Assembly: GCA_002508315.1 (NCBI GenBank)
Contig: DAHE01000043.1
Span: 1,228-65,227, forward strand
Direction of reading: 5' to 3'
DNA: 64,000 bases
From: Thermocladium sp. UBA166
Lineage (GTDB): Archaea > Thermoproteota > Thermoprotei > Thermoproteales > Thermocladiaceae
Both the position numbers and the translations under genes were made by a program. The notes below the pieces were generated by a model. It saw only the letters and a program-made list of their open reading frames with translations, was not told the origin of the DNA and did not search any database. Below are positions 24,738-43,464 of this stretch, one piece after another; the first letter of the stretch is position 1, and each line of letters opens with the position of its first letter.

Positions 24738-27700
24738 TCACTCTGGCTTGTGCTCCTCTATGAAATCGGATAACTCCAGCTTGGGGTATATTCCTAGGCT
24801 TATCAATTCCTGCAGCATCAACTTAAATGCGTACGGCACCACTATCTTCGATATATTGCTCTTATTGCCGTGTATGGGGCATACAGGGCGACCCTTGTGG
24901 TAATCGTACCAAGCTATCATCCCGCAATCCTCGCATACATACATTGTGTACTTATCGCTTGATTCCACTAATCTCTCGTGAAGCAGAGCGGATGCGCCGT
25001 GTGCGATCAGCACGTCTCTCTCCATTTCGCCGAGCCTCAATCCCCCCTCCCTGGATCTTCCCTCAGTGGGTTGCCTGGTCAGTATCTGGACGGGGCCGGT
25101 CGACCTAGTATGTATCTTGTCGGCAACCATGTGGTGCAGCTTCTGGTAGTAAATGACCCCAACGAATATATCTGCCACTAGCTTCTCCCCTGTTATGCCG
25201 CTGTACATTACCTCCTTGCCGGACCACCTGAAGCCAAGCCTTATCAATGCATCGCGCAGCGTCTTCTCGTCTACCCCCTCAAATGGAGTGGCATCCACTA
25301 ACTGACCAGTCATTGATGATACCTTGCCCGCTATAGCCTCCATTAATTGCGCAATAGTCATTCTACTAGGCATGCCGTGCGGATTAATTATTATGTCCGG
25401 CACTATTCCGCTCTCAGTGAACGGCATATCCTCCATGGGCAATACCATGCCTACCACCCCCTTCTGGCCGTGCCTACTAGCGAATTTATCGCCCAGCTCC
25501 GGCTTGCGTATTTCCCTGACCTTTACCTTTATCAACTTATAGCCCTCGCTGTTCTCGGTTATTAGTATCCTATCCACTATGCCCCTCTCTCCCCTCCTCA
25601 CCGTTATGGAGGAATCTCGCCGCTCCTTCTTAAGAGTCTCCTCGGCGAAGGCGCCGTAGAACCTCGGTGGGCTGGTCTTCCCTATCAACACCTCATTGCT
25701 CGACACCAGCACCTCGGGTATTATGATGCCGTCCTCATCCAGGTGCGAGTACACGTCCGCGCCCTTATACCCCCTTGTGCTTTGGGATGGTATTTCTATT
25801 TTATCCGTCTCCCCGCCGGAATACCTTATCTCCTCCGTCTCATATGTTCTATAAAATATGCTTCTGAACATCCCCCTCTCTATCGATGCCTTATTTATTA
25901 TTACGGCGTCCTCCATGTTATAACCAGTATATGATATCAACGCGACCACCGCGTTCTGGCCGGAGGGCCTTTTGCTGTAGCCGACCAGCTCGGCCCCCCT
26001 AGTGGTCACCAGCGGTCGCTCCGGATATAGAAGTAAGTGGCCCCTAGAGTCCATTCTATATCTAAAATTCGAGGCGGGCATGCCTAGGGATTGCTTTGCC
26101 ATGGCGGCCTCATATATGTTCCTCGGCGATTGATTGTGCTCTGAGAACGGTATAATGGATGCGATTGCCCCCAACATAACGGATGGGTATATCTCCATGT
26201 GAGTGAACTTGCTTAGATCCTCTCCAGGCTCTATCGCTATCAATGCATTCTCCTCCTCGTCGGCGTCTAGGTACTCTATTATGCCGTTCTTCTCCAAATC
26301 GCTCCACGTCCACGTCCCCTTCCTCAAGTTATCAATATGCTCCGGCTTCAGCCTGAGCTTGCCTCCCTCTATCACTAGGAGCGGGCGCCTTAACCTGCCC
26401 GAATCGCAGTTCACCCTGACTTCCTTCAATTCATCTATGTAGGCCACGTTTATTTCCTTGCTTATCTCATTTCTCCGCCGCATCTCCCTTAGCTTTGACA
26501 CCAATTGTCTTGGGTCTTCATGTATCCCTATCAATCTACCGTTGAGTAAAACCTCGTTGCCCTTCATGCCGTTTCTTCTCGCTGTAAGTATGTCCACGAC
26601 GCCCATTTCGTAGAGCATGTCCTCGACGTCCTTCTCATCAACCCCAACGGTCGCTGATGCTAGGAGCGCCATGTTCTTCACCAATCCACAGTTGGCGCCC
26701 TCGGGCGTCTCCACCGCGCATAGCCTGCCCCATTGGGTGGGATGAAGATCCCTGGCCTCGAAGTGGGGCTGTCCTCTTCCCAGTGATGACAAAACCCTGC
26801 GCAGGTGGCTTATTGTGGATAGATAGTTGGTTCTGTCCAGCATCTGCGTCACTCCGGTTCTATTTCCAACCCAGTTGCCCGTGGATAGGGCATGCCTTAT
26901 CCTCTCCGTCATTATGTCGGCTCTTACTATTGTGGCCAGGTTAGGTATCTTGCCCCTAGCGTAGTACTTCTCCAGTTGACTTCTTAAGTCCTGCATGAAT
27001 TGGTTAAACACGGTCTTGAATAATTGCGACATTAGGTCGCCGACCAGCCTTACCCTCTTGTTGGCCATGTGGTCCTTATCGTCCGGCTTCCTCCTACCCA
27101 GGTAAAGCTCGACCACCCCCTTTATTGCTTGTCCTAGGAGGAGCGCCTTCTTCATTCTTACCTCGGGATCCGGGGCAGTGCCTAGGTGGGGCAGGAAATA
27201 CTTGTCCAGGGTCGACAATGCTCTTTCAATTCTTATTTCCCTCAACTGGCCTATGGCTATCTTGCCCCCTATGTAATCCCTTGCATCGTCTATTGTAGCG
27301 GCAACTTGGCTTGACCTCTCGAGGGATGCCATCAATTCGTTCTGTATATCGGGATCATCGCTTATCGCCGTAACTATGTCTTGATCAGTCTCCATGCCGA
27401 GCGCCTTCATTACTATTGGGAATGGCAATTTTATGGACAATCCAACCGATTGAACATATATGACGCCGTCCCTATGTAATTCCACCGTGGCCTTGGTCCT
27501 ATAGCCGGGCCCTATCGATACTATCGTGGCCATATATACCCGTGTGCCGCCCCTTTGGTCTATTTCGTAGATGGGCTTATTGAGGGATAGGTCTTCCTGC
27601 GCCACCACAACTCTCTCGCTTCCGTTTATTATGAAGTAGCCGCCAGGGTCATCTGGATCCTCAAGCTTTTTGGGCAGGTCGTTTTGCTTCAATCCCATTA

Positions 27701-28145
27701 GGTTACAATACCTGGATTTCACCATGATGGGCATGTCGCCTATGTACACCCTCTCGCTTGGATACTCCTCGCCATTCACCACCAAGGTCATTCGCATGTA
27801 CATCGGAGCGGCGTACGTGGTGTTTCTCATCCTTGCCTCCATGGGATAGATAATACTTTCTATTCCATCTGACTCCTTAATTCTAGGCCTGCCTATTTCC
27901 ACTTTATCCACTATAAGGGAGATGCCCTTGACATTCATCTCGGCGCTTCCCATCTCCTTAACCATTTTCTGCAGCTTATTGTCCAGGAAATCATTAAAGG
28001 AATCCATTTGATGCCTAACCAATCCATTCTCCCTTATATAGGACTCCACTATGGTCCATCTATCGTTGGTGGAGGGGAAAAGCCCCACATCATCGGCCTT
28101 AGTCAGGTATGGAAGTGCTAGCGATCCCTTCTTCATGCGGGTCAA
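24738..28145 (-). CDS. rpoB: DNA-directed RNA polymerase subunit B (Rpo2, unsplit)
   Basis: [55 protein letters not shown]. Confidence 0.98.
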
Positions 28146-28417
28146 CCCGACACCACTATTCTGTAGAATATTATTTCCCCAGCCGTGGGGGATTTCCTAT
28201 ATATCCTAACAACGCTCCCCGGCTTCGCTCCTAGGGCCTTTATGAGGGGATCTTGTGCCCTTATCCACGGCAATTGCCAAGGTGCAACGTTCAGCTTCTT
28301 CAGTATAGCCTTAGCCTCATCCATTGAAACGAGCTCCGCCTTGGGCACTAATTCATGATCCAAGGCCCGCCGGGCAATCAATTCATCTTTTTTTCTCCTC
28401 GAACGATGGGACGACAT
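28142..28417 (-). CDS. rpoH: DNA-directed RNA polymerase subunit H (Rpo5)
   Basis: [25 protein letters not shown]. Confidence 0.95.
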
Positions 28418-28546
28418 TATACTCCATTACGATAGAATACCGTTAATAAATCTTTTCCAGACGATCCACGATTCTTTTGCGGCTTCATTCATCATTGATT
28501 CCCATCATGCATCAACTATTAATATGCATTTGAATTGATTATCGAC

Positions 28547-29317
28547 ATGATAAGGCCAAGTGCCAAGGTTCTTGCCTTCACCAGTGGATCCAAAGGCGGG
28601 GTCGGCAAGAGCACCATAGTGGCCAACGCGGCTGCAATAATAGATGCCCCGGTGGCGGTGGTGGACTTGGGCTTCGACGGGAATAACACTGTTAGCAAGT
28701 TGCATGGAATAGACGATAATGACGACGGCATCTTGAACTACTTGGCGACGGGCGCCAAGCTTAAGATACATGAATCGAAGGAGCATAAGAACGTCTCAAT
28801 AATCCCGCCGGGCGACCTTGACTATAGATATTTCCTCCTCTTCAGCGCCAATAGGTATGCCGTGGCGGCCAGATTCGAGAGATTAATAATCGACCTTTCA
28901 AGAAATGGAGTAAAGCTTGTGCTGGTCGACTTCCCGGCAAACATGGATAAGTCGATACATCATACACTGATAGCCTTCTCCGACATAGTTAACCTAATAA
29001 TGGAACCCAGCGAATCATCGATAGACTCCCTGACCAAATTGTATAAGGAAGTGATGGGCTTCTACGATGGATATGGCGTCATAAATACTATCGTCAATAT
29101 GATAGCGGTGGATAACGATCCATTAGCTGACTATTCCAGGAAGTACGTTAATAACGGAGAGGCGATGAGGATACCGTTTGATCATTATGCCAGATATTAT
29201 ACAAATAACGGCGCATTGGCGATTCACTACAGGACTGATGGCTTTACGTCAGCCATAACCAGCGTCGTCAAGCAAGTATCGAAGCAGGCGGAGCAGTTGA
29301 TGGGGGTGAGGTTATGA
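28547..29317 (+). CDS. ParA/MinD-family ATPase
   Basis: Deviant Walker A SKGGVGKSTI, VVDLG, LVDFPA, IPFD. Confidence 0.85.
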   Translation: MIRPSAKVLAFTSGSKGGVGKSTIVANAAAIIDAPVAVVDLGFDGNNTVSKLHGIDDNDDGILNYLATGAKLKIHESKEHKNVSIIPPGDLDYRYFLLFSANRYAVAARFERLIIDLSRNGVKLVLVDFPANMDKSIHHTLIAFSDIVNLIMEPSESSIDSLTKLYKEVMGFYDGYGVINTIVNMIAVDNDPLADYSRKYVNNGEAMRIPFDHYARYYTNNGALAIHYRTDGFTSAITSVVKQVSKQAEQLMGVRL

Positions 29318-29586
29318 TTTCCAACAAGCAGGAGAGATTGAATAGATTGGGCGATGTATTGGGCGATGAAGTGAAGGAGTCCAGCAAGGAAAAAGGCCAG
29401 GACAGTAAGGTCAGGAGAGCCATGAGGTTGACAAGGGACCTAATAGAGCTGCTGGGAGATGATGAATTGACGAAGAAGATACTCTCCAAGATAACGGCAG
29501 ATGACATAGTGGGGGAGGTGAGGCAAATCGATCCAGAGCTGGCGAGCTTCCTGCAGGTTTGGTTATCGATTAGGTGTCCCCAGTGA
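29314..29586 (+). CDS. Hypothetical protein (90 aa), possible ParA adaptor
   Basis: ATGA overlap with the ParA gene, GGGGTGAGG RBS; N-terminal RLNRLGDVLG arm. Confidence 0.65.
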   Translation: MISNKQERLNRLGDVLGDEVKESSKEKGQDSKVRRAMRLTRDLIELLGDDELTKKILSKITADDIVGEVRQIDPELASFLQVWLSIRCPQ

Positions 29587-30092
29587 ATGAGCGGAAATTG
29601 GACGAGCTTAATGAAAGAATGAGACGAGACCTGAGCAGTATATCCATGAAACGCATGGATAAAGTAAGGAAGGTCGCGGCCTTCAGACGAAATTACGAGA
29701 AGAGCATGGCGAAGAAATGCGGTAAGCTGCGTGAGCAATGCCTTAAAATGCTACGTGATGTCTTGAATGGCTATGATGCGAGCGATGTGAATGCATTGCT
29801 AAGCAAGGGTAACGCGGCGATCATTGCCTTTTTTCTGTGGAGAAGGGATGAAATTGCATTGATGGATTATCTGAGCAATGGGAAGTACGATTCAAACGCG
29901 GTGAGGCAAGCGTATTTGGGCTTGGGAGCCAAGGAGTGGGATATAGATGAGGCATTGGGCGGCGGGAGGAAGAATGAAAAACTGATCATAATTAAGCTGC
30001 CCAGGAGGAAGCGTGTCGATGCAGAGAGGAAAAAAGACGACCTCCCCCAATTGACCACAATAGACGACCTACCGGATGATCTATTTAAGTAG
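29574..30092 (+). CDS. Hypothetical basic helical protein (172 aa)
   Basis: Overlaps the upstream gene and ends 7 nt before the ATPase ATG; K/R-rich with an acidic DDLPDDLFK tail. Confidence 0.65.
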   Translation: MSPVNERKLDELNERMRRDLSSISMKRMDKVRKVAAFRRNYEKSMAKKCGKLREQCLKMLRDVLNGYDASDVNALLSKGNAAIIAFFLWRRDEIALMDYLSNGKYDSNAVRQAYLGLGAKEWDIDEALGGGRKNEKLIIIKLPRRKRVDAERKKDDLPQLTTIDDLPDDLFK

Positions 30093-30099
30093 TTGGCCT

Positions 30100-32145
30100 A
30101 TGCATAATAGACTGAACTTGATACTGGCGTCCGTTATAGCAATACATGTAGTGGCCATGCTATATAGACCAATGATATTGGCGATTTTACCCCTATTGGC
30201 GGCAACGGGAAGTTACTCGCTACCCCTGTTGCTTGGTCTCTTCGATGGGAAGGCGATGCCGTTATCCACGATAAAGAATGACTATGTATACGACGTGGGC
30301 AGCGGCGTGATAAATGTGTTCTATTTTCTGGAGCCATTATTCAATTCAAGTAGAATGAGCGGGAAAAGCTATGCCGCGCTAATCACGGAATTGATTCAGA
30401 GGCTACAATTGGATGACAATGTCCTAGTTTCGTTCATTGTCATGGGAGGCAAGATCATGGTTCGCATAGGGTTGAAAATCGCTGTAGATGATATGGCAAT
30501 TGCGCGGGCCAGGTTCCTGTCGATTGAGAGGATATTGGGGGAGTACTTCGTGGTAAGGAAGCGATTGGATAATGCGGACTTGAGGGAATTTTACGGCATG
30601 AGGGGTATAAAGTTAACTGTGAAGCATTCCGCATTGGTTGCAGCATCGTTGATGTACTTCGCCATATACGGCGTACCTGGACTATTGATGATTGCCTCGG
30701 TAGCATCATTCTTCATTTATGGCATATATAGAGGTAAGTGGGTGTCCTCTGATCTTCCTTTCAATTATGCGATGAAATCTAACGACAACGCGTTCAAGGA
30801 TATAGACGACGACTCGCTGCGAGCGCTCTCCTTGGCTCGTAATGGAATTGATTCGTACTGCGTCATGTTTCAAGGAAACCCAGATCTTCAAAGCAAGGCT
30901 AGGAAAATGTATCATAAGGCAAATGAAGGAAATGTGGTTAGGGAGATGGGGAAGTACTACTTCGATGCGATCAAGTGGAGGAATGTAATAAATAGAATTA
31001 ACTCGGGCGAGTTACCTATAAAGCTGCTCGTCCTCTCCGCATCACCGATGGGCCCCGGATACACTCGCCGCTTGCCAGCCCCTTATCTATTCGCTAGGCC
31101 GGCGGAGTTCATGAGCGACGGCTTGAGCAGGGACCTCATGATATACTTACCGTTTAGGGCTGCAGAGGAGTCAGGCAGTGGCTCAATACGGATAGGCAGG
31201 GATAGGCAGGGCAATCCCATCAATGTGGACATGGATTTATTGCCTAACATGCATGGGCTCATAGTGGGACCCACCGGAATGGGGAAGACATGGACCATGA
31301 AGACCCTCCTCGCTAGACTTATGTCGAGAAATATAATACCTATAGTGGTGGATCCCCACGGCGAGTACGCCAGCGTGAGGGGCATTAAGGAGATCGACGT
31401 CACTAGGCAAATGATAAACATGTTCGATTTAGGCGGCGTTACAAGGACCGAGAGAATTAGCAGGATAGCTGAGGGCATTTCCCTCTCCTTCCAAGTCAAT
31501 TCAATTGGAGAGATAATAGAGGACTTGGAGCTGGCATACGCTGGAGGCGAGATCAAGGATAACAAGGATGGAATTAAGAGGCTGATGGCTGTGTCCCAGG
31601 ACGCTAGGTTGATTAATGTGTATGAACGCATAGGCGAGGCGATAGAGGGATCCGAATCAACGGGGCTGGACGATATAGTATCGGCCCCAGCAGCAATAAC
31701 GTTCAGGGGAGTGGCGGCTAGCCCCGACGTAACTAGGTTCCTTATGCTGCAGTGGATCGACCATATATATGGTTATATATTGAGCAGAAACGCGGGGAGA
31801 AGGAGATTATTGGTGATAGATGAAGCGTACTACGTCCTGTCCAATAGGTTGATGGAGCTTTACGTGAGGGGAACCAGGAAGTTCGGCCTGGGCATTTTCC
31901 TTATAACGCAGGAACTGGGTGATATATCGCCTGAGGCGGTCCAGAATATTCCATTCAATATATTGCTAGCCGGCCCCGATCCCTACGTCGCCTCCATTGC
32001 ATCCATTTATAACCTAAGCGAGGAGGACATTCGTTGGCTAACCCAGGCCCTGCCTCCCCAGACATTGGGTGGAGCAGCCAGGGCAATGCTGATCAGAGGT
32101 CCGTTAAAAGATCATGTAATGATAGACCTAGAGAAGAATCAATAG
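30100..32145 (+). CDS. Membrane-anchored VirB4/HerA-like ATPase (TedB/CedB-like)
   Basis: N-terminal TM segments; HGLIVGPTGMGKT, VVDPHGEY, LLVIDEAY, RKFGLGIFLITQ. Confidence 0.8.
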   Translation: MHNRLNLILASVIAIHVVAMLYRPMILAILPLLAATGSYSLPLLLGLFDGKAMPLSTIKNDYVYDVGSGVINVFYFLEPLFNSSRMSGKSYAALITELIQRLQLDDNVLVSFIVMGGKIMVRIGLKIAVDDMAIARARFLSIERILGEYFVVRKRLDNADLREFYGMRGIKLTVKHSALVAASLMYFAIYGVPGLLMIASVASFFIYGIYRGKWVSSDLPFNYAMKSNDNAFKDIDDDSLRALSLARNGIDSYCVMFQGNPDLQSKARKMYHKANEGNVVREMGKYYFDAIKWRNVINRINSGELPIKLLVLSASPMGPGYTRRLPAPYLFARPAEFMSDGLSRDLMIYLPFRAAEESGSGSIRIGRDRQGNPINVDMDLLPNMHGLIVGPTGMGKTWTMKTLLARLMSRNIIPIVVDPHGEYASVRGIKEIDVTRQMINMFDLGGVTRTERISRIAEGISLSFQVNSIGEIIEDLELAYAGGEIKDNKDGIKRLMAVSQDARLINVYERIGEAIEGSESTGLDDIVSAPAAITFRGVAASPDVTRFLMLQWIDHIYGYILSRNAGRRRLLVIDEAYYVLSNRLMELYVRGTRKFGLGIFLITQELGDISPEAVQNIPFNILLAGPDPYVASIASIYNLSEEDIRWLTQALPPQTLGGAARAMLIRGPLKDHVMIDLEKNQ

Positions 32146-32335
32146 TTGTAGATCCCATGCTTTTAAGTTGCGCTAATCCACAAATTCAATTTACTAGTCA
32201 ATCCATTACTTCCCTAATGGAATCGGATCAGCTTGGAAGCGATTGATCGGTCCTCCCTGTAAGGGAAACTTCTTCCTTGTGGGGAATGGCGTCTAGGGCG
32301 ATGATTGATTCGGCCCTACAATGGTTCCCGTTCCA

Positions 32336-32350
32336 CGAAAGGGTTAATAC
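32336..32350 (+). promoter_or_regulatory. BRE+TATA promoter of the pilin-like gene
   Basis: GAAAGGGTTAATA about 22 nt upstream of ATG 32371. Confidence 0.45.
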
Positions 32351-32370
32351 CGCTGTTCTGCCTTGATCCA

Positions 32371-32823
32371 ATGATATGGAGAATCGTCGCCGCCATCCTA
32401 GTGATGGCTTTATCGGCGGCCCTCCTGGCTCATGCCAGTGGGAACTACACTGGGAACTCGACCGGAATAAATCCTCAATCCATAGAGAACAACTTGATAA
32501 CGCCGTTTTTGAGCGATGCGTTTAACGTGATTTCAATAATAGGGGGGCTCAGCATGTGGATGTTGATATTGGCTGGCATATATAAGATATTCGAGTCTAA
32601 GTTAAGCATGACGTCGTGGGGTAGGATGAGCGGTCTTTACGAGGCCATAAATAATTTTAAATGGATATTCATTGGAATAGCCACCTTCTATGTATTGATG
32701 TATGTCATTTTTTACGTTGCGAATGGATTGGGAGCCAATGTGAATCCAGGCGCGGAGTCCTTATTAATGATTAGAAAATTATTGATATCCCCCTTCATTC
32801 AATTAGCAAGCCATGCAACTTAA
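32371..32823 (+). CDS. Small secreted two-TM protein, VirB2-like pilin candidate (TedC/CedA1-like)
   Basis: Signal peptide ending AHA, two hydrophobic helices separated by a basic loop; lies between the VirB4-like ATPase and a large membrane protein. Confidence 0.6.
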   Translation: MIWRIVAAILVMALSAALLAHASGNYTGNSTGINPQSIENNLITPFLSDAFNVISIIGGLSMWMLILAGIYKIFESKLSMTSWGRMSGLYEAINNFKWIFIGIATFYVLMYVIFYVANGLGANVNPGAESLLMIRKLLISPFIQLASHAT

Positions 32824-35554
32824 TGAATTAGCCTTGTCGCTGGAGGCGGCTTCAGTAATAGTAATTGGATTCTGGAGGCGTAGAATTAAGCTGCGGGAGG
32901 CGCTGCTCGTCGTGGCTTCATGCATATTCTTCATATCGCTGCCTCTCTTGATGAACGGATCCCCAATGAGCGCTGGGTCAGCGTTTGAGCTGTCTGAGAT
33001 CCGAGATTCTTGGCTGGCCATGTATAGATCATCCATCGCTGCTGGATTGACGTTATCGACGGTGCTGACAGCCAGAAACATAATAGCCATAGTGGTGCTC
33101 GCCGGCGCTAACGTTCCATCCCAGCAATACTACTATGGATTGGAGGCGTTGGGCAAGTTCCTGGATCCCTTATCGTTCATAGTATATACATCCATGCATT
33201 TAAGTCAAGTAATGCTGGCCATATTTAACACCATCGTAGAGGTTGTCAGAATATCGGCTTACTGCGGCCAGTGCATCATGGCACTATCGCTTCCCCTGAT
33301 AATTATAGGAAAAACCAGATCGTTTGGGCTCTCGCTGCTGATAATCGCCGTAGTTATGGGGTTCGTGGCGAGCACTGCAGCCGCCTCGGTGTACGGTCTC
33401 AAGCCCCCCTCAATGCGCTTCCCCGCGCAATTGCCTTCATCGCCCATGGACCTCCTATACGCGACGGGGTATTCTGGTTGGTTGATCACGGGATACGTGG
33501 GCAGGCAAGGGTTCGCATTGATTACCCCCACCTCTGCCTCCCCCGTGCCCAGCGGAGAATTAGCGGTAAATGGCACGTATTACCTATGGTTGAATATAAG
33601 GGTCTCCCCCGCCATAAATCAATCCAATGGAGTGTATGAGATCGAGGTTGGCCCTCCCCCATTTCACGTTATAAGAAATGACAGTTACGCCGTGGGGGCA
33701 TGGATGTGGCTCAACTCATCCCCTCCCTCGCGTTACTACATCCAAAACGGTAATGGGTATACTGAATTGAAATGGACGGAGAGGCTCGCCCCAAACGAGA
33801 CCGTGGAGAACACGTTATGGACTTACTCAAGAAATGTATCGATAAAAGGATGCAATTACACAACCTCAACCAGAGCCATCTACGAGGAGGCCAATCTAGG
33901 CCGGTACATAGCGGAATTAGCTAGGCTATACGATTACATAGCGCGCCAACTAGGGGTGGATTCGATCAGTGAGCCTCCACGCCCAGCCCCGCCCAGCGAC
34001 TTAACTCAACGCGTGGTGACCATAACGTGCTCCAACGAGGGAAACGAGGATCTCACGTACTCCATCAGCGCAGTGATATACGGTACTGGCCTGGGGGGCT
34101 GGGGCGATTGGGGCATTGGGCCCAAGATGATAGGCATTGCATACACGAGTGAGTTGATGAGCTATTATGATGCAGTTAATAGCGATTATTTGGTGAGTGC
34201 AATCAATGAAATAAAGGCATTACCCAACATATTCGGCGTATTCGTGGTCAGGATAATAGTCTTGTCAGCAATCATATTCGGCGCAGCCAATGCGTTGGCA
34301 TTCATACTTGGATTACCCACGGGATTCAACTCATTGATGTACGCGTTAATAAATGGCATAGTCTATGAATTATCCGTTATATTCTTGTTCAAGCCATCAT
34401 ATGGCTCCACATCGATAGCTAGGAGGGTAGCCAAGAAAATAACGGGCAGTAGCCTCATGGTGCCTGGGACCAGGAAATCATCACTGCTCATGTCGAGGGC
34501 TAGAAAGGGAGAGCTGCATCAATACGTGCCGCGATACATGCTGAGGCGCCGGATCGTGGATGCCACGACGCTGACTTTAATTCACGATGGCTTGACGAGT
34601 CGAGTTAAGCGAACGCCGAAGGTTGAGGCAGGGACGATAGGCGAGACCACCGCTAGGTATATCGCGTGGGCCATGAGGAAGAGGGGCCCCAGCGGCGTCA
34701 GATTTACCAACGACGTGTATTCTTACAAGTACTTAACTCAATCATCGATAGCCGTGTTGAGGAGCGATAAATTGCTCGCCAGGTTCATTCGGTACTCAAT
34801 AGCATTGAGGATAAGCGAATTACACGAGCGAGACATATACCTGCTCCACTCCGCCTCGCTTGCTAAGTCAGGCAACGCACGGGCCATGGAAGAACTCCGA
34901 AAGGCCGGCGTTGTAGTGAATGGAACCATAGACGCGGTTAAGATAAATAGAATTAAGGAGGACCTAGCCCGCAGGTATAATTGGTTGGGGGATCTATACT
35001 CCGGCAAGGCCCTGGCTAAGTCCCCAAGGGATCCAGTGCTACGCGAATTAGTGAGTGACTACGTGGCAATTCATAGGCGGAGAACCGCCACCGTCCTTCA
35101 AATGTCGGTTAGGCTCAAGGTAACCCCACTGACCGCGGTGATGCTGAGCCTGGGGCCCCGCTCTATTAAGGTATCGAGAAGCGGGCAACATGATGAACAC
35201 CACGATAAGTTGGTAAACGGCGATGCGGTTCGTGATTACGTAGCGATGGGGCGAGAAGCGGCCAGGGTGTTCCTTCGCCGATCGCGAACAATGGAGGATG
35301 ATCTATTAAGCGATGCTCGCTTCTCTTCACTATACGTGAAGCCGGCAATTAATTTCCTGGAGTCGTATAGGTCATACTTGGTTGGCGCGCTTAACGATAT
35401 GGGGCTCCCCGGATCCACTGTTCATCAATTCATAATAGAGCTAAGGACGGGACCCGTAGGGGACGCGGAGAAGGCGGTGGAGTTGATATCAGAGTTGAGG
35501 AGAGTTGATCAAATGATTAAGTCATTGAGGCCCAGAAAACGAAGCCATGGCTAG
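32813..35554 (+). CDS. Large polytopic membrane protein (VirB6/TedA/CedA-like channel candidate)
   Basis: About 6 N-terminal TMs, a sequon-rich extracellular domain, 2-3 further TMs and a long basic cytoplasmic tail; overlaps the pilin stop. Confidence 0.6.
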   Translation: MQLNELALSLEAASVIVIGFWRRRIKLREALLVVASCIFFISLPLLMNGSPMSAGSAFELSEIRDSWLAMYRSSIAAGLTLSTVLTARNIIAIVVLAGANVPSQQYYYGLEALGKFLDPLSFIVYTSMHLSQVMLAIFNTIVEVVRISAYCGQCIMALSLPLIIIGKTRSFGLSLLIIAVVMGFVASTAAASVYGLKPPSMRFPAQLPSSPMDLLYATGYSGWLITGYVGRQGFALITPTSASPVPSGELAVNGTYYLWLNIRVSPAINQSNGVYEIEVGPPPFHVIRNDSYAVGAWMWLNSSPPSRYYIQNGNGYTELKWTERLAPNETVENTLWTYSRNVSIKGCNYTTSTRAIYEEANLGRYIAELARLYDYIARQLGVDSISEPPRPAPPSDLTQRVVTITCSNEGNEDLTYSISAVIYGTGLGGWGDWGIGPKMIGIAYTSELMSYYDAVNSDYLVSAINEIKALPNIFGVFVVRIIVLSAIIFGAANALAFILGLPTGFNSLMYALINGIVYELSVIFLFKPSYGSTSIARRVAKKITGSSLMVPGTRKSSLLMSRARKGELHQYVPRYMLRRRIVDATTLTLIHDGLTSRVKRTPKVEAGTIGETTARYIAWAMRKRGPSGVRFTNDVYSYKYLTQSSIAVLRSDKLLARFIRYSIALRISELHERDIYLLHSASLAKSGNARAMEELRKAGVVVNGTIDAVKINRIKEDLARRYNWLGDLYSGKALAKSPRDPVLRELVSDYVAIHRRRTATVLQMSVRLKVTPLTAVMLSLGPRSIKVSRSGQHDEHHDKLVNGDAVRDYVAMGREAARVFLRRSRTMEDDLLSDARFSSLYVKPAINFLESYRSYLVGALNDMGLPGSTVHQFIIELRTGPVGDAEKAVELISELRRVDQMIKSLRPRKRSHG

Positions 35555-37503: not shown

Positions 37504-38865
37504 TCACTTTAAGAAGTAATTCTCATAGTCCTTCACGTACCTGACGCTTTCCTTGACGCCAAGGAACAGTTTCTTAACATACTCAACGTCGTCCTTGGAG
37601 ATGCTTTTCCTTCCCGTCTCGCTGGCCTTGAGTTGAGTTGGTGCTAGTAATTGTATTGAATATCTAAGGCTCTCCTCCACGCCTAGCTTTGTCAATTCCT
37701 CCAATGCCTCATCGCTGAGCTCCACCTTTTCCTCCCTAGCCCTGATCCTCAATATCTCCCTCACCTCCTCCGCATTGTAGGGCCTCGTCCTAATTATCAC
37801 CAGCCTATCAAGCATGTCCAGGGGAACGCCGTGAGGGCTCTCTATGTCGGTGCCCCTTATCTTGGTTAAGCCCCTATTCGTAGCCATTATTATTATTGGG
37901 CTCAACTCGCTCTCCATTGCCCTGGACAAGTAAGCCCACGTCTCTACGTCCAACATGTGAACGTCATCTATGAACAAGACGCCGGGGATTAGCTCCCCCT
38001 TTCCATCACTTATCAACTTCATAACGAACTCATCAACCGATTTCCTAACCTCGCTCGGTATCTCCCTCTCCTCGCTTGCGAATCCGAACAGCATAGCCCC
38101 AACTAATCCCTGCTGCCTAGCTTGGTATACATCCAAGTCGTTTAACGTGAAGAACCTGGTTATCTCCCGCTCCTTGTACACGGGCCCGCTCGGCGCATCG
38201 ATCTTCCTCTTGATGCTTACATCATACTGCCCCTCACCCCCCGCTTCCTCCCTGCCCTCCACGAATACTCTTCCCGTTTCCTCGTCTATCATTATCACAT
38301 CCCCCTCCTCCACGCCCATCTCTATCAACTGCTCAGCTATCTCCGCGGATACCCTGAGCCTTTTCTCCTCATCCTTGGTCTTTAAGGTGATGGCGGCTCC
38401 CCGCGGTATTTGAGAGTATGGATTATATGGATGCTTCCCCAACTGGTAATCCATTCCCTTCACAACGCCCTCATACACCCTCCTCCACTCCCTAATCCTA
38501 ACGCCTATAGCCCTCCTCAATGCCCTCGTCAGGAACTCAGTCTTCTTTATCTCCATGCTGTACACCTCTGCGCCGCTCATTTGAACGAAGGGAGTGTCGG
38601 AGCCTAATTCCCTGGCTATTCCGATTGCCAACGCCGTCTTCCCCGTTCCCGGAGGTCCCACTATCAGCACAGCTTTTCCGCCGAACTTGCCGCTCTTTAT
38701 CATTTTGACCACGTAGTAGGCTGCCTCCCTCGCCTCGGATTGGCCGACGAATCCATCCGCATTGAATTGCACCTTTCCATCCCTTATGCCCAACCCCTTT
38801 ATATGGCTGTGCAGGCCCACCCTTTCAAACGAAGACTTGACCTCCTCTACCCTTATCTGCGACAT
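37504..38865 (-). CDS. TIP49/RuvB-like AAA+ ATPase (TBP-interacting protein)
   Basis: HSHIKGLG, GPPGTGKTALA, LFIDDVHMLD, ATNRG, SLRYSIQL. Confidence 0.93.
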   Translation of the reverse strand: MSQIRVEEVKSSFERVGLHSHIKGLGIRDGKVQFNADGFVGQSEAREAAYYVVKMIKSGKFGGKAVLIVGPPGTGKTALAIGIARELGSDTPFVQMSGAEVYSMEIKKTEFLTRALRRAIGVRIREWRRVYEGVVKGMDYQLGKHPYNPYSQIPRGAAITLKTKDEEKRLRVSAEIAEQLIEMGVEEGDVIMIDEETGRVFVEGREEAGGEGQYDVSIKRKIDAPSGPVYKEREITRFFTLNDLDVYQARQQGLVGAMLFGFASEEREIPSEVRKSVDEFVMKLISDGKGELIPGVLFIDDVHMLDVETWAYLSRAMESELSPIIIMATNRGLTKIRGTDIESPHGVPLDMLDRLVIIRTRPYNAEEVREILRIRAREEKVELSDEALEELTKLGVEESLRYSIQLLAPTQLKASETGRKSISKDDVEYVKKLFLGVKESVRYVKDYENYFLK

Positions 38866-41574: not shown

Positions 41575-43464
41575 ATGGGGGATGAAATAGGCTATGTGGT
41601 GGGCAACATAGGCTCCAGCCAAGTCAAGGTCGCTATTAGAACTGATATGGCCGATAAGGTACAATTATTCGAGTACGTGTCATACAGGCATTTAAATTAT
41701 GAGATCCTCGGGTACGTGGTCAACATAAGCAGGGAACCCTATAAGATAGGGGAGGACCTGGCAGCCGATGCCCTGAGCAGCGCGGTTGGGGTGCAGTTGA
41801 TAGAAACGATAATAGCCACGGTTATGCTGCTGGGATACAAGGACTCAGGGCTTAAGCTACCTAGATCGCCCCCGCCCGTCGGCACTCCAGTTAGATTGGC
41901 TGACCCCCAGCTGATTAAGGAGTACTTGGGGCTACGAGGCAAGTTATGCGTGGGTTACTTGGCTTCCCAAGACGTGCCGGTGTGCCTCGACGAGAAGGGC
42001 TTGGCTAGGCACATGGCGATAATAGCGGCCACGGGAAGCGGAAAGACTTGGCTCTCCGTGTTATTGATAGAGGAGCTCCTAAAGCTGGGAGCCACGGTAG
42101 TAGTGCTTGATCCTCACGGCGAGTATATAACTATAAAGGACTCCGCCAAGAAGTTAGGCAATGCTGGAGTAACGGTGATAAAAGCCGCGAAGCATCATGT
42201 GGGGGATAAGCGGTACTCCATGAACGTGTTGAGGGTTGAACCGGATCAATTAGCATCCATAGCCGGGGTACCAACCGGCGCGTCGAGAATACGCCACGTG
42301 GTTTACTTGATTCACTCCCTCATGAAGATAATATACAAGACGGTAAACGGGGCCGGCGAGTCCGGCTCCGTGATTGGGATGATTAGATTGATAAATTCAC
42401 TGCTGACTCGCCCACTCAGCGCGCCTGATGTGCAAAGGGCGCTTAGGATTCAGCAGCCGATCGGTGAGGACAATGTAGTGGAGCCAGATAAATTCAAGCA
42501 ATTATTGAGCGAGCTTAGGTCGGCGGCCGGCGATTCCAGGCAACGTAGCGCGATAATTAGCGCGAGGGTTTACTTGAAGAGACTGGCGAGAACGGGCGTC
42601 TATAGGGGTCGCACGACTCCATTAAGCGATGTATTGAGGCCCCGCCATGTTTCCGTGATAAATCTAGCGGGCGTCAGCGATGAGGTACAAGATCACATAG
42701 CTTATCATGTTCTTAGCAGGATATTGAAGGCTAGAATAAACTATGTAAGGCAGTTGGGTAATCCCCAATACCCATACCCGGTTGTTGTAATAGTGGAGGA
42801 GGCCCACAGGTTTGCTCCCCCCAATAAATCGACGCTTTCCCACTCATTGATAAACAGGATAGCAGCGGAGGGCAGGAAATTCGGGGTTTACTTAGTGGTT
42901 ATAACGCAACGCCCATCCAAGATAGATCAGGATGTGTTGAGCCAGTGCCAGAACCATGCTATATTAAAAGTAGTTAACCCGCTCGACAGGGAAGCAATAA
43001 TAGCATCAAGCGAGGCGCTCAGCGATGAGTTGGTAAGGATAATTGGAGGATTAAATAAGGGCGAGGCGCTCATAGTTGGACCAATGGCCCCCGCCCCCCT
43101 CCTCATAAAGCTGCGCGAGAGGCGGTTGGACTACGGTGGAGGCGATATAGATCTGGACAAGTATTGGGGAGTCAGCGATGGGGAGTCCATAGCCAAGGTA
43201 AGGGATGCTTGGCGAAAAGCAATGATCCGCGCAACCCCTCCCCCGGATCTGGTGGCGACGGCGATGGGGTTGGCCGTGGATGGATTGAGCCAAAGGGGCC
43301 ACGTGGTTTCGGGCTATGTGGATGGATCATCAATTGAAATAAATCTGAGGGAAAGGACGTGGTCCTGCAGCAAGTGCGGGAATGCATTAACCCCATGCGA
43401 GCACGTGGTAGCTCTCTTCTCTAGAGTTGTGTTTGAGAAGGCATCGTTGCTCGGCATTGCTTAA
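41575..43464 (+). CDS. HerA-family ATPase (HAS barrel) with C-terminal SWIM-like zinc finger
   Basis: RHMAIIAATGSGKT, LDPHGEY, VEEAHRF, EGRKFG, TQRPS; tail WSCSKC...PCEH. Confidence 0.82.
   Translation: MGDEIGYVVGNIGSSQVKVAIRTDMADKVQLFEYVSYRHLNYEILGYVVNISREPYKIGEDLAADALSSAVGVQLIETIIATVMLLGYKDSGLKLPRSPPPVGTPVRLADPQLIKEYLGLRGKLCVGYLASQDVPVCLDEKGLARHMAIIAATGSGKTWLSVLLIEELLKLGATVVVLDPHGEYITIKDSAKKLGNAGVTVIKAAKHHVGDKRYSMNVLRVEPDQLASIAGVPTGASRIRHVVYLIHSLMKIIYKTVNGAGESGSVIGMIRLINSLLTRPLSAPDVQRALRIQQPIGEDNVVEPDKFKQLLSELRSAAGDSRQRSAIISARVYLKRLARTGVYRGRTTPLSDVLRPRHVSVINLAGVSDEVQDHIAYHVLSRILKARINYVRQLGNPQYPYPVVVIVEEAHRFAPPNKSTLSHSLINRIAAEGRKFGVYLVVITQRPSKIDQDVLSQCQNHAILKVVNPLDREAIIASSEALSDELVRIIGGLNKGEALIVGPMAPAPLLIKLRERRLDYGGGDIDLDKYWGVSDGESIAKVRDAWRKAMIRATPPPDLVATAMGLAVDGLSQRGHVVSGYVDGSSIEINLRERTWSCSKCGNALTPCEHVVALFSRVVFEKASLLGIA

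Follow-up and report, generated by a model that had tools for sequence, protein, structure and literature searches.

A probable core of the chromosomal Ted system in Thermocladium, with a ParA-like gene and small proteins linked to its ATPase

Organization of the gene cluster

We analysed a stretch of 64,000 nucleotides (nt) of contig DAHE01000043.1 from Thermocladium sp. UBA166, hereafter the window, and found at positions 28547-35554 a cluster of six genes coding for a ParA/MinD-type ATPase, two small proteins, a membrane-anchored ATPase, a pilin-like protein and a 913-amino-acid (aa) membrane protein. We consider it highly probable (roughly 85%) that this cluster is the core of the chromosomal Ted (Thermoproteales exchange of DNA) system of a T. 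modestius-like Thermocladium, a domesticated conjugation-type pilus machine of the kind described by Beltran et al. in 2023 (PMC9905601). The gene content, homology, synteny and chromosomal residence that form the basis of this reading are observed, and it is from them that we infer every functional step. The source genome is a metagenome-assembled genome (MAG) of 1.31 Mb that is 76.7% complete (G000); the genomes compared with it, all of them Thermoproteales, carry G-numbers, and the five genera of Thermocladiaceae are denoted g1-g5.

All six genes are present in the list of open reading frames (ORFs) of the window and are given here with two promoter-like boxes (pI, isoelectric point):

28517..28525, forward strand: TATA-like box TATTAATAT, ~26 nt from the start codon of parA on its upstream side; possible promoter of parA-p90-p172b-tedB
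28547-29317, forward strand: parA, 256 aa; an alternative TTG start at 28535 is also in the open frame
29314-29586, forward strand: p90, overlapping parA by 4 nt
29574-30092, forward strand: p172b, pI 9.6, overlapping p90 by 13 nt
30076-32145, forward strand: putative tedB, an ATPase of 689 aa, overlapping p172b by 17 nt
32344..32349, forward strand: TATA-like box TTAATA, ~24 nt from the start codon of tedC on its upstream side; possible separate promoter of tedC and the 913-aa gene
32371-32823, forward strand: putative tedC, a pilin of 150 aa
32813-35554, forward strand: long TedA-like membrane protein of 913 aa, overlapping tedC by 11 nt

An earlier note on this DNA, made from the letters alone, had described six co-oriented and mostly overlapping genes with a gap of about 225 nt before the pilin gene, and the ORF coordinates bear this out, with 225 nt between the end of tedB and the start of the pilin gene. 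The flanking ORFs likewise agree with the divergence from rpoH-rpoB described there: both rpoH (28142-28417, reverse strand; Rpb5_C) and a 1135-aa ORF that we read as rpoB (24738-28145, reverse strand) point away from the cluster. Since two other Thermocladium genomes carry orthologues of all six in an unchanged order, they are real genes rather than chance ORFs. Furthermore, the database matches to the pilin and to p90 are proteins of Thermocladium sp. and T. modestius, with identities of up to 96-97%.

The sequence ATATTAATAT before parA is invariant in three Thermocladium genomes despite diverged flanks. Before tedC, AAAG..TTAATA is conserved in three Thermocladium genomes, and the remaining spacer cannot be aligned. 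As TATA-like boxes are thus conserved before both parA and tedC, we propose two transcription units: the boxes suggest leaderless transcripts of parA-p90-p172b-tedB and of tedC with the long gene, rather than one six-gene operon. The earlier note had placed ParA and its two small neighbours in one operon with the ATPase, and these four genes stay together in the first of the two proposed units.

The pilin and the ATPase

The 150-aa protein carries a Sec-type signal peptide that ends at AHA, before SG, and is followed by two hydrophobic helices. Searched by itself against the PDB (phmmer), the pilin sequence gave no match, and word-based homologue searches with the pilin and with the 913-aa protein returned Thermocladium sequences only. 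A profile built from the pilin and three relatives (A1), in contrast, matches chain A of 8DFT, the solved TedC pilus of Pyrobaculum calidifontis, with an E value of 4.7e-6; the match extends from model position 53 to 144 and so takes in almost all of the mature pilin. The TedC profile finds homologues in 32 of the 62 Thermoproteales genomes, and the pilin gene is the most conserved of the cluster (85% identity to the sister species). On this homology we assign the 150-aa protein to TedC, a predicted VirB2-like pilin precursor of the conjugative type.

The 689-aa ATPase has two hydrophobic segments (about residues 12-52 and 188-214), anchors that are conserved in its homologues, and its Walker A (GPTGMGKT) and Walker B (VIDEA) motifs are intact. 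Matches to DUF87, CedD, CedB and VirB4-like models cover the P-loop domain only (residues ~350-660), and the profile matches in the PDB are HerA-like chains and the VirB4 structure 4AG5. The scores reach 42.5 bits for CedD (cut-off 600), 40.4 bits for CedB (cut-off 700) and 12-20 bits for the HerA equivalogs (cut-offs 800-970). We rejected an assignment as CedB or CedD equivalog, both NCBIfam cut-offs being far above these scores. Since the HerA equivalogs reach such low scores, the protein is not HerA proper; a soluble, NurA-associated HerA repair helicase was rejected also in view of the N-terminal anchors and of the neighbouring parA, p90, p172b and tedC.

Full-length homologues of the ATPase are found in all five genera of Thermocladiaceae, with E values from 1e-290 to ~1e-48 in 21 of 24 other genomes. 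In the P. calidifontis-type genome of 2,009,313 bp, the best match in a one-way search is a 685-aa ATPase with transmembrane (TM) anchor, located 7 kb upstream of tedC. These matches identify the 689-aa protein, at the level of sequence, as TedB, a predicted membrane-anchored ATPase of the VirB4/HerA/FtsK superfamily. The TedC profile match to 8DFT and the TedB homology together bear out a Ted/Ced-type machine with an attached ParA, as the earlier note had read the cluster. That note had named a 150-aa protein unlike TedC and an ATPase grouping with soluble HerA as findings that would speak against it; what we found is a TedC-like protein and a membrane-anchored ATPase far from soluble HerA.

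The long membrane protein and its relation to TedA

The 913-aa protein is laid out as a TM bundle (residues 1-200), an ectodomain (201-468), a TM hairpin (469-530) and a cytoplasmic tail (531-913). The ectodomain is acidic and contains seven N-x-S/T sequons for N-glycosylation; the tail is very basic (pI 10.6) and is not conserved outside the genus. No Pfam or NCBIfam family matches the protein. In P. calidifontis, tedC is followed by a gene for a 310-aa protein with seven TM segments (Pcal_0766, TedA) and then by the gene for a protein of at least 1195 aa. Iterative searches group the 913-aa protein with the product of the large gene found after tedA in Pyrobaculum and after tedC in Caldivirga and g3, a grouping driven by two shared regions, the N-terminal TM bundle and the later TM hairpin.

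We therefore examined the 913-aa protein as a candidate for the published TedA (Pcal_0766 family) and rejected it, as it belongs to this separate family of long proteins. The comparison with Pcal_0766 was not significant by pairwise BLAST or by hhalign with shallow profiles. Once the alignments were enlarged, hhalign matched the long family, through its N-terminal bundle, to the TedA family with a probability of 92.7% (E 4e-7, score 53), against control scores of 19 for reversed and 27-36 for block-shuffled alignments, and significance is reached only with these enlarged alignments. The core of the match is formed by two helices with the motif (E/K)-(R/T)-T-R-x-x-G-A. The 913-aa protein is thus probably a remote long paralogue of TedA, and the VirB6-like channel that the earlier note saw in it has to be restated in these terms, since it is not the canonical TedA.

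An AlphaFold2 (AF2) model of residues 1-600 has a mean confidence (pLDDT) of 56.9 and is poor in its TM part; only the beta-rich ectodomain, at about residues 250-430, is confident. With this model, Foldseek returned only insignificant Fab-like matches to the beta ectodomain in the PDB, and a broad fold search returned generic helical hairpins (Z ~10), so that the structure gave no verdict on VirB6.

The short TedA family has members of 254-302 aa throughout Thermocladiaceae, and its profile has no match in the PDB. In the sister Thermocladium genomes G002 and G003, the short TedA gene lies on another contig than the cluster. It stands alone, far from tedC and tedB, at L088:1495-2316 (G003:C9) and at G004:C1:1648742-1649614, the latter being a third locus in Caldivirga. 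As a result of this isolated position, the Ted genes of Thermocladiaceae are spread over two or three loci.

ParA and two small proteins upstream of the ATPase

The first gene of the cluster codes for a protein with a deviant Walker A motif (KGGVGKS, residues 16-22). It matches Pfam CbiA with 33.6 bits (cut-off 25.4) and also AAA_31, as well as archaeal MinD/BcsQ models of NCBIfam, all of the latter under their equivalog cut-offs, and its nearest solved structures are the archaeal MinD proteins 1ION and 1G3Q. With both the signature and the fold-family match found, we assign its predicted product to the ParA/MinD family with deviant Walker A motif.

The two small proteins that follow have no match in Pfam or NCBIfam, including ParB, ribbon-helix-helix (RHH) and other DNA-binding families, and a look-alike search with a protein language model gave no usable match for either. 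p90 is small, acidic and apparently mostly helical, and is found between ParA and p172b in seven loci of g1, g2 and g4. Its family is confined to Thermocladium, Caldivirga and uncultured lineages related to them: when 5.8 billion proteins were searched with its profile, there were 21 matching clusters, every one annotated as hypothetical, one of them 96% identical to a T. modestius protein. p172b is basic and helical, with a basic C-terminal tail and an invariant C-x6-C pair (C49/C56; alignments A3/A4). Wherever it occurs in the loci examined, it is located directly upstream of TedB, and its family is rare, with no more than 24 representatives in a set of 1.84 billion proteins. The AF2 model of p172b is all-helical and of low confidence (pLDDT 57.6), and the best Z of 3.4 in the fold search is meaningless. 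The cysteine pair, at window positions 29718-29741 (residues 49-56), is invariant inside an otherwise fast-evolving cytoplasmic family; the two residues may form a structural disulfide, a frequent feature in Thermoproteales, or bind a metal.

Next we examined the order of these genes in other genomes. Of 14 Thermocladiaceae loci, 10 have a ParA-like gene upstream of TedB, as do all six of the Pyrobaculum/Thermoproteus-type loci examined. Within Thermocladiaceae, g1, g2 and g4 have ParA, p90 and p172b directly upstream of TedB (p90 was undetected in one g4 locus), and g5 keeps ParA and p172b there. In Caldivirga (G004) the ParA module stays with TedB, with tedC and the long paralogue 1.1 Mb away. 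The six Pyrobaculum/Thermoproteus-type loci all have a shortened ParA-like gene, then one or two small proteins, then TedB, and these small proteins carry a C-x6-9-C pair. Pooled and compared with the p172b family, they give a hhalign probability of 77% (E 2e-5, score 37) with the cysteines aligned, against scores of 12-23 for reversed and shuffled control alignments.

Collectively, these comparisons give solid sequence evidence for a genetic coupling of ParA and a small cysteine-pair protein to TedB, and indicate that the gene order ParA, cysteine-pair protein, TedB is kept in both families of the Thermoproteales, including loci that have tedC elsewhere. The synteny of the parA trio with the ATPase, on which the earlier note had made its reading depend, holds across Thermocladiaceae and, in the form of a ParA-like and a cysteine-pair protein, in the Pyrobaculum/Thermoproteus-type loci.

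One could also regard ParA, p90 and p172b as a cassette for DNA segregation (SegAB, ParA-ParG or AspA-ParB-ParA-like) that is independent of the Ted genes and just happens to stand beside them, as a ParA gene followed by small charged proteins, one of them basic, resembles partition cassettes and the nearest solved relatives of this ParA are MinD proteins. We consider this very unlikely, given that overlaps of 4, 13 and 17 nt link the module internally and to tedB, that the order ParA, small protein, TedB is retained in two families even with tedC and tedA elsewhere, and that members of the rare p172b family occur only beside TedB in the loci examined; furthermore, neither p90 nor p172b matches ParB, RHH or another DNA-binding family.

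Residence in the chromosome

The locus is found between rpoH/rpoB and genes for peroxiredoxin (Prx) and PALP in three Thermocladium genomes, and every part of the cluster is single copy in G000. A family scan of the flanking ORFs identified housekeeping genes there, namely an MGMT-like gene and genes for a peroxiredoxin, a pyridoxal-phosphate enzyme, TIP49 and an aminotransferase. There is no integrase or relaxase among the ten flanking ORFs scanned and no tRNA within the 64-kb window, and the GC content across the locus is 0.47-0.50, compared with a window mean of about 0.50. Identities to the G003 orthologues are 85% for TedC, 80% for ParA, 80% for p90, 60% for TedB, 52% for p172b and 48% for the long paralogue; this graded identity (48-85%) at a shared site fits vertical inheritance.

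A type IV secretion system (T4SS) of a conjugative plasmid or an integrative and conjugative element was rejected as an assignment on three of these grounds: the scanned flanks without relaxase or integrase, the 64 kb without tRNA, and the same site in three Thermocladium genomes. A related possibility is that the cluster is the remnant or cargo of such an integrated plasmid or element and serves the transfer of the element rather than being domesticated. The homology of the Ted parts to conjugation machinery would be in keeping with this, as would the three to five copies of ATPase and pilin in the Pyrobaculum-type genomes G027 and G047 and the patchy distribution of the pilin there (10 of 29 genomes). 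In Thermocladium, we find it very improbable: each part is single copy in the source MAG, three species share the same housekeeping flanks with orthologues that have diverged to 48-85% identity, the scanned surroundings hold no integrase, relaxase or tRNA target and have a GC content near the window mean, and TedB homologues are present in all five genera of Thermocladiaceae. A domesticated rather than plasmid-borne cluster, as proposed in the earlier note, is thus in line with the scanned flanks, the common site in three genomes and the single copy.

In G027 and G047 (L033, L046, L047), some of the three to five TedB-like and TedC-like copies lie at contig ends, and some Ted-like clusters of the Pyrobaculum-type family may be mobile. 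In the closest relative (G001:C27:9551-14136; L006, L064, L073), a 47%-complete MAG whose TedB is 88% identical to that of the window, tedB and the long paralogue are broken by several stop codons, which reflect either decay of the system or poor assembly.

Two further ATPase genes lie downstream of the cluster:

37504-38865, reverse strand: TIP49/RuvB-like AAA+ ATPase, 2 kb downstream of the cluster; TIP49 domain E 6e-132
41575-43464, forward strand: stand-alone HerA/CedD-like ATPase of 629 aa, 6 kb downstream of the cluster; DUF87 112 bits

The 629-aa ATPase scores 220 bits with the NCBIfam model HerA_Thermprot and 105 bits with CedD, both far under the cut-offs, and no nurA, mre11 or rad50 gene adjoins it. 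These matches suggest that it may be a TedD/HerA-like companion of the Ted locus.

Discussion

The locus is no new kind of system. Ted, its presence in this genus and its association with ParA are all already in print, in the 2023 description (PMC9905601) and, for ParA, also in a 2025 paper (PMC11823120), and the new points are confined to details of the accessory genes. In Thermocladium a virB4-like orthologue was reported next to tedC, Ted loci were found commonly to include a MinD/ParA (VirC1-like) ATPase for which a VirC1-like role was postulated, and HerA-like genes were described as common members, together with a linkage to a Rad50-type gene (PMC9905601). The 2025 paper repeats the ParA association and names the CedD homologue TedD (PMC11823120). 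The earlier note, which knew of no characterised role for ParA here, therefore overstated the novelty, since both the association and the VirC1-like role had appeared in papers of 2023 and 2025. The text of these two Ted papers (PMC9905601, PMC11823120) does not deal with the two small proteins or with the long paralogue.

The window resembles the Ted system of P. calidifontis in its TedC-type pilin with cleavable signal peptide, in the full-length match of its TM-anchored ATPase and in the ParA/VirC1-like gene directly upstream of that ATPase. The locus is likewise chromosomal and without mobility genes, and it shows exactly the published virB4-tedC adjacency of Thermocladium. The arrangement is different: the order in P. 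calidifontis is ParA-p133-TedB, six genes including a RadA paralogue, TedC, TedA (310 aa) and the long protein, whereas in the window tedB is next to tedC, the long paralogue directly follows tedC, there is no short TedA at the locus, and p90 is extra. In the P. calidifontis-type locus, the gene at L055:12227-13165, between tedB and tedC, matches Pfam Rad51 (E 8e-38); by this match, the gene called 'rad50 recombinase' in the published text (PMC9905601) is identified as a RadA/Rad51 paralogue and not as Rad50.

In Sulfolobales and Desulfurococcales, the Ced system (CedA, CedA1, CedA2, CedB, CedD, CedE) is likewise a domesticated T4SS-like machine, with a VirB2-like pilin, a VirB6-like channel and membrane-anchored HerA/VirB4 ATPases. 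The VirB6-like paralogue pair CedA/CedE of Saccharolobus is analogous to the short TedA and the long paralogue. Ced pilins, however, have no signal peptide, Ced uses a CedB/CedD pair where the window locus has a single ATPase, and Ced loci are without ParA (PMC9905601). The Ced system imports DNA in Sulfolobales (PMC9905601, PMC11823120). Ted systems are thought to exchange chromosomal DNA between cells.

The combination of a ParA/MinD ATPase and small partners with a secretion or pilus machine, to which it is genetically tied, has parallels in VirC1/VirC2 of the Agrobacterium Ti plasmid and in TadZ/CpaE of Tad pili. VirC1 acts by recruiting DNA substrate to its T4SS, TadZ by giving the pilus machine its place in the cell. 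The cluster differs in that there is no Pfam VirC1 or VirC2 match, that neither p90 nor p172b shows a recognisable fold of the RHH or another DNA-binding type, and that the locus is without a relaxosome or an oriT-like site. The 'positioning module' of the earlier note is a conjecture about ParA; on the strength of these parallels, the module might act in substrate recruitment, as VirC1/VirC2 do, or in placement of the machine, as TadZ does.

Extended VirB6 proteins of bacterial T4SS, for example of the TraG type of the F plasmid, combine a polytopic VirB6-like N-terminus with a large hydrophilic extension. The 913-aa protein differs from them in having its ectodomain inserted before the TM hairpin and, in addition, a basic cytoplasmic tail. 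Its likeness to VirB6 comes from the remote profile match to TedA, with no structural match.

We propose that the parts could work together as follows. TedC would be exported via Sec, cut between AHA and SG, and polymerised with membrane lipid into a hollow VirB2-like pilus, and TedB, as a membrane-anchored and presumably hexameric ATPase, would power pilus assembly, DNA translocation or both. The 913-aa protein would equip the channel or the pilus base with its membrane bundle, with an outer domain that is glycosylated and, on the cytoplasmic side, with a strongly basic tail, and the canonical short TedA would be supplied from another locus, as in the sister genomes. ParA, p90 and p172b would form an accessory module tied genetically to TedB, most likely VirC1/VirC2- or TadZ-like, which either brings DNA substrate to the translocase or places the machine. 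Expression would probably start from two promoters, one for parA-p90-p172b-tedB and one for tedC and the long paralogue.

Several points weigh against reading the cluster as the core of a Ted system. Even at E<=10, neither the window nor the source MAG, which is 76.7% complete, yielded the canonical TedA (Pcal_0766 family); its absence most likely reflects the incompleteness of the MAG. The ATPase domain of TedB is about equally distant from the CedD, CedB, VirB4 and HerA models, and the P. calidifontis TedB with which we compared it was taken as the ATPase upstream of tedC from its position, not from a published accession. The AF2 models of p172b and of the N-terminal part of the 913-aa protein are of low confidence, and the fold searches with them were uninformative. 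Finally, DNA transfer is undemonstrated for any Ted system, the Thermoproteales not being genetically tractable (PMC9905601).

This last point bears on a reading in which the machine is an adhesive or secretory pilus, used in biofilm, cell contact or protein export without DNA transfer, with ParA only a placement factor like TadZ or FlhG. No Ted system has been the subject of a DNA-transfer assay (PMC9905601), the six genes include no relaxase or obvious DNA-processing gene, and the large ectodomain of the long paralogue, with its predicted glycosylation, could mediate contact. We consider such a pilus unlikely, since the homologous Ced system imports DNA in Sulfolobales and the Ted loci in the literature show a link to HerA-like and Rad50/RadA-like genes, with a HerA/CedD-like gene 6 kb downstream in the window; moreover, binding of nucleic acid would be in keeping with the basic character of p172b and of the cytoplasmic tail.

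For the Ted machine itself, we tentatively put forward a more specific proposal, which we regard as possible and rather doubtful. Here, ParA, p90 and p172b would be a dedicated targeting module, order-wide and bound to TedB, that acts as a relaxase-free counterpart of VirC1/VirC2 by capturing chromosomal DNA, for example broken ends, and passing it to or from the channel, and the long paralogue would add a DNA-binding tail and a contact-forming ectodomain. If this were true, Ted would have at least three conserved components that are undiscussed in the published text.

To our knowledge, no systems other than Ted and Ced have been described in which conjugation machinery was adopted by cells for exchanging their own chromosomal DNA. 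Taken together, our comparisons sharpen the parts list of Ted in three respects. Throughout the order, the putative TedB ATPase travels with ParA and a small cysteine-pair protein. Furthermore, there appear to be two VirB6-like lineages, one of short TedA and one of long proteins that carry an ectodomain and a basic tail, which echoes CedA/CedE in Ced. Lastly, the compact arrangement in Thermocladium offers a handy minimal set of parts for co-expression and structural studies.

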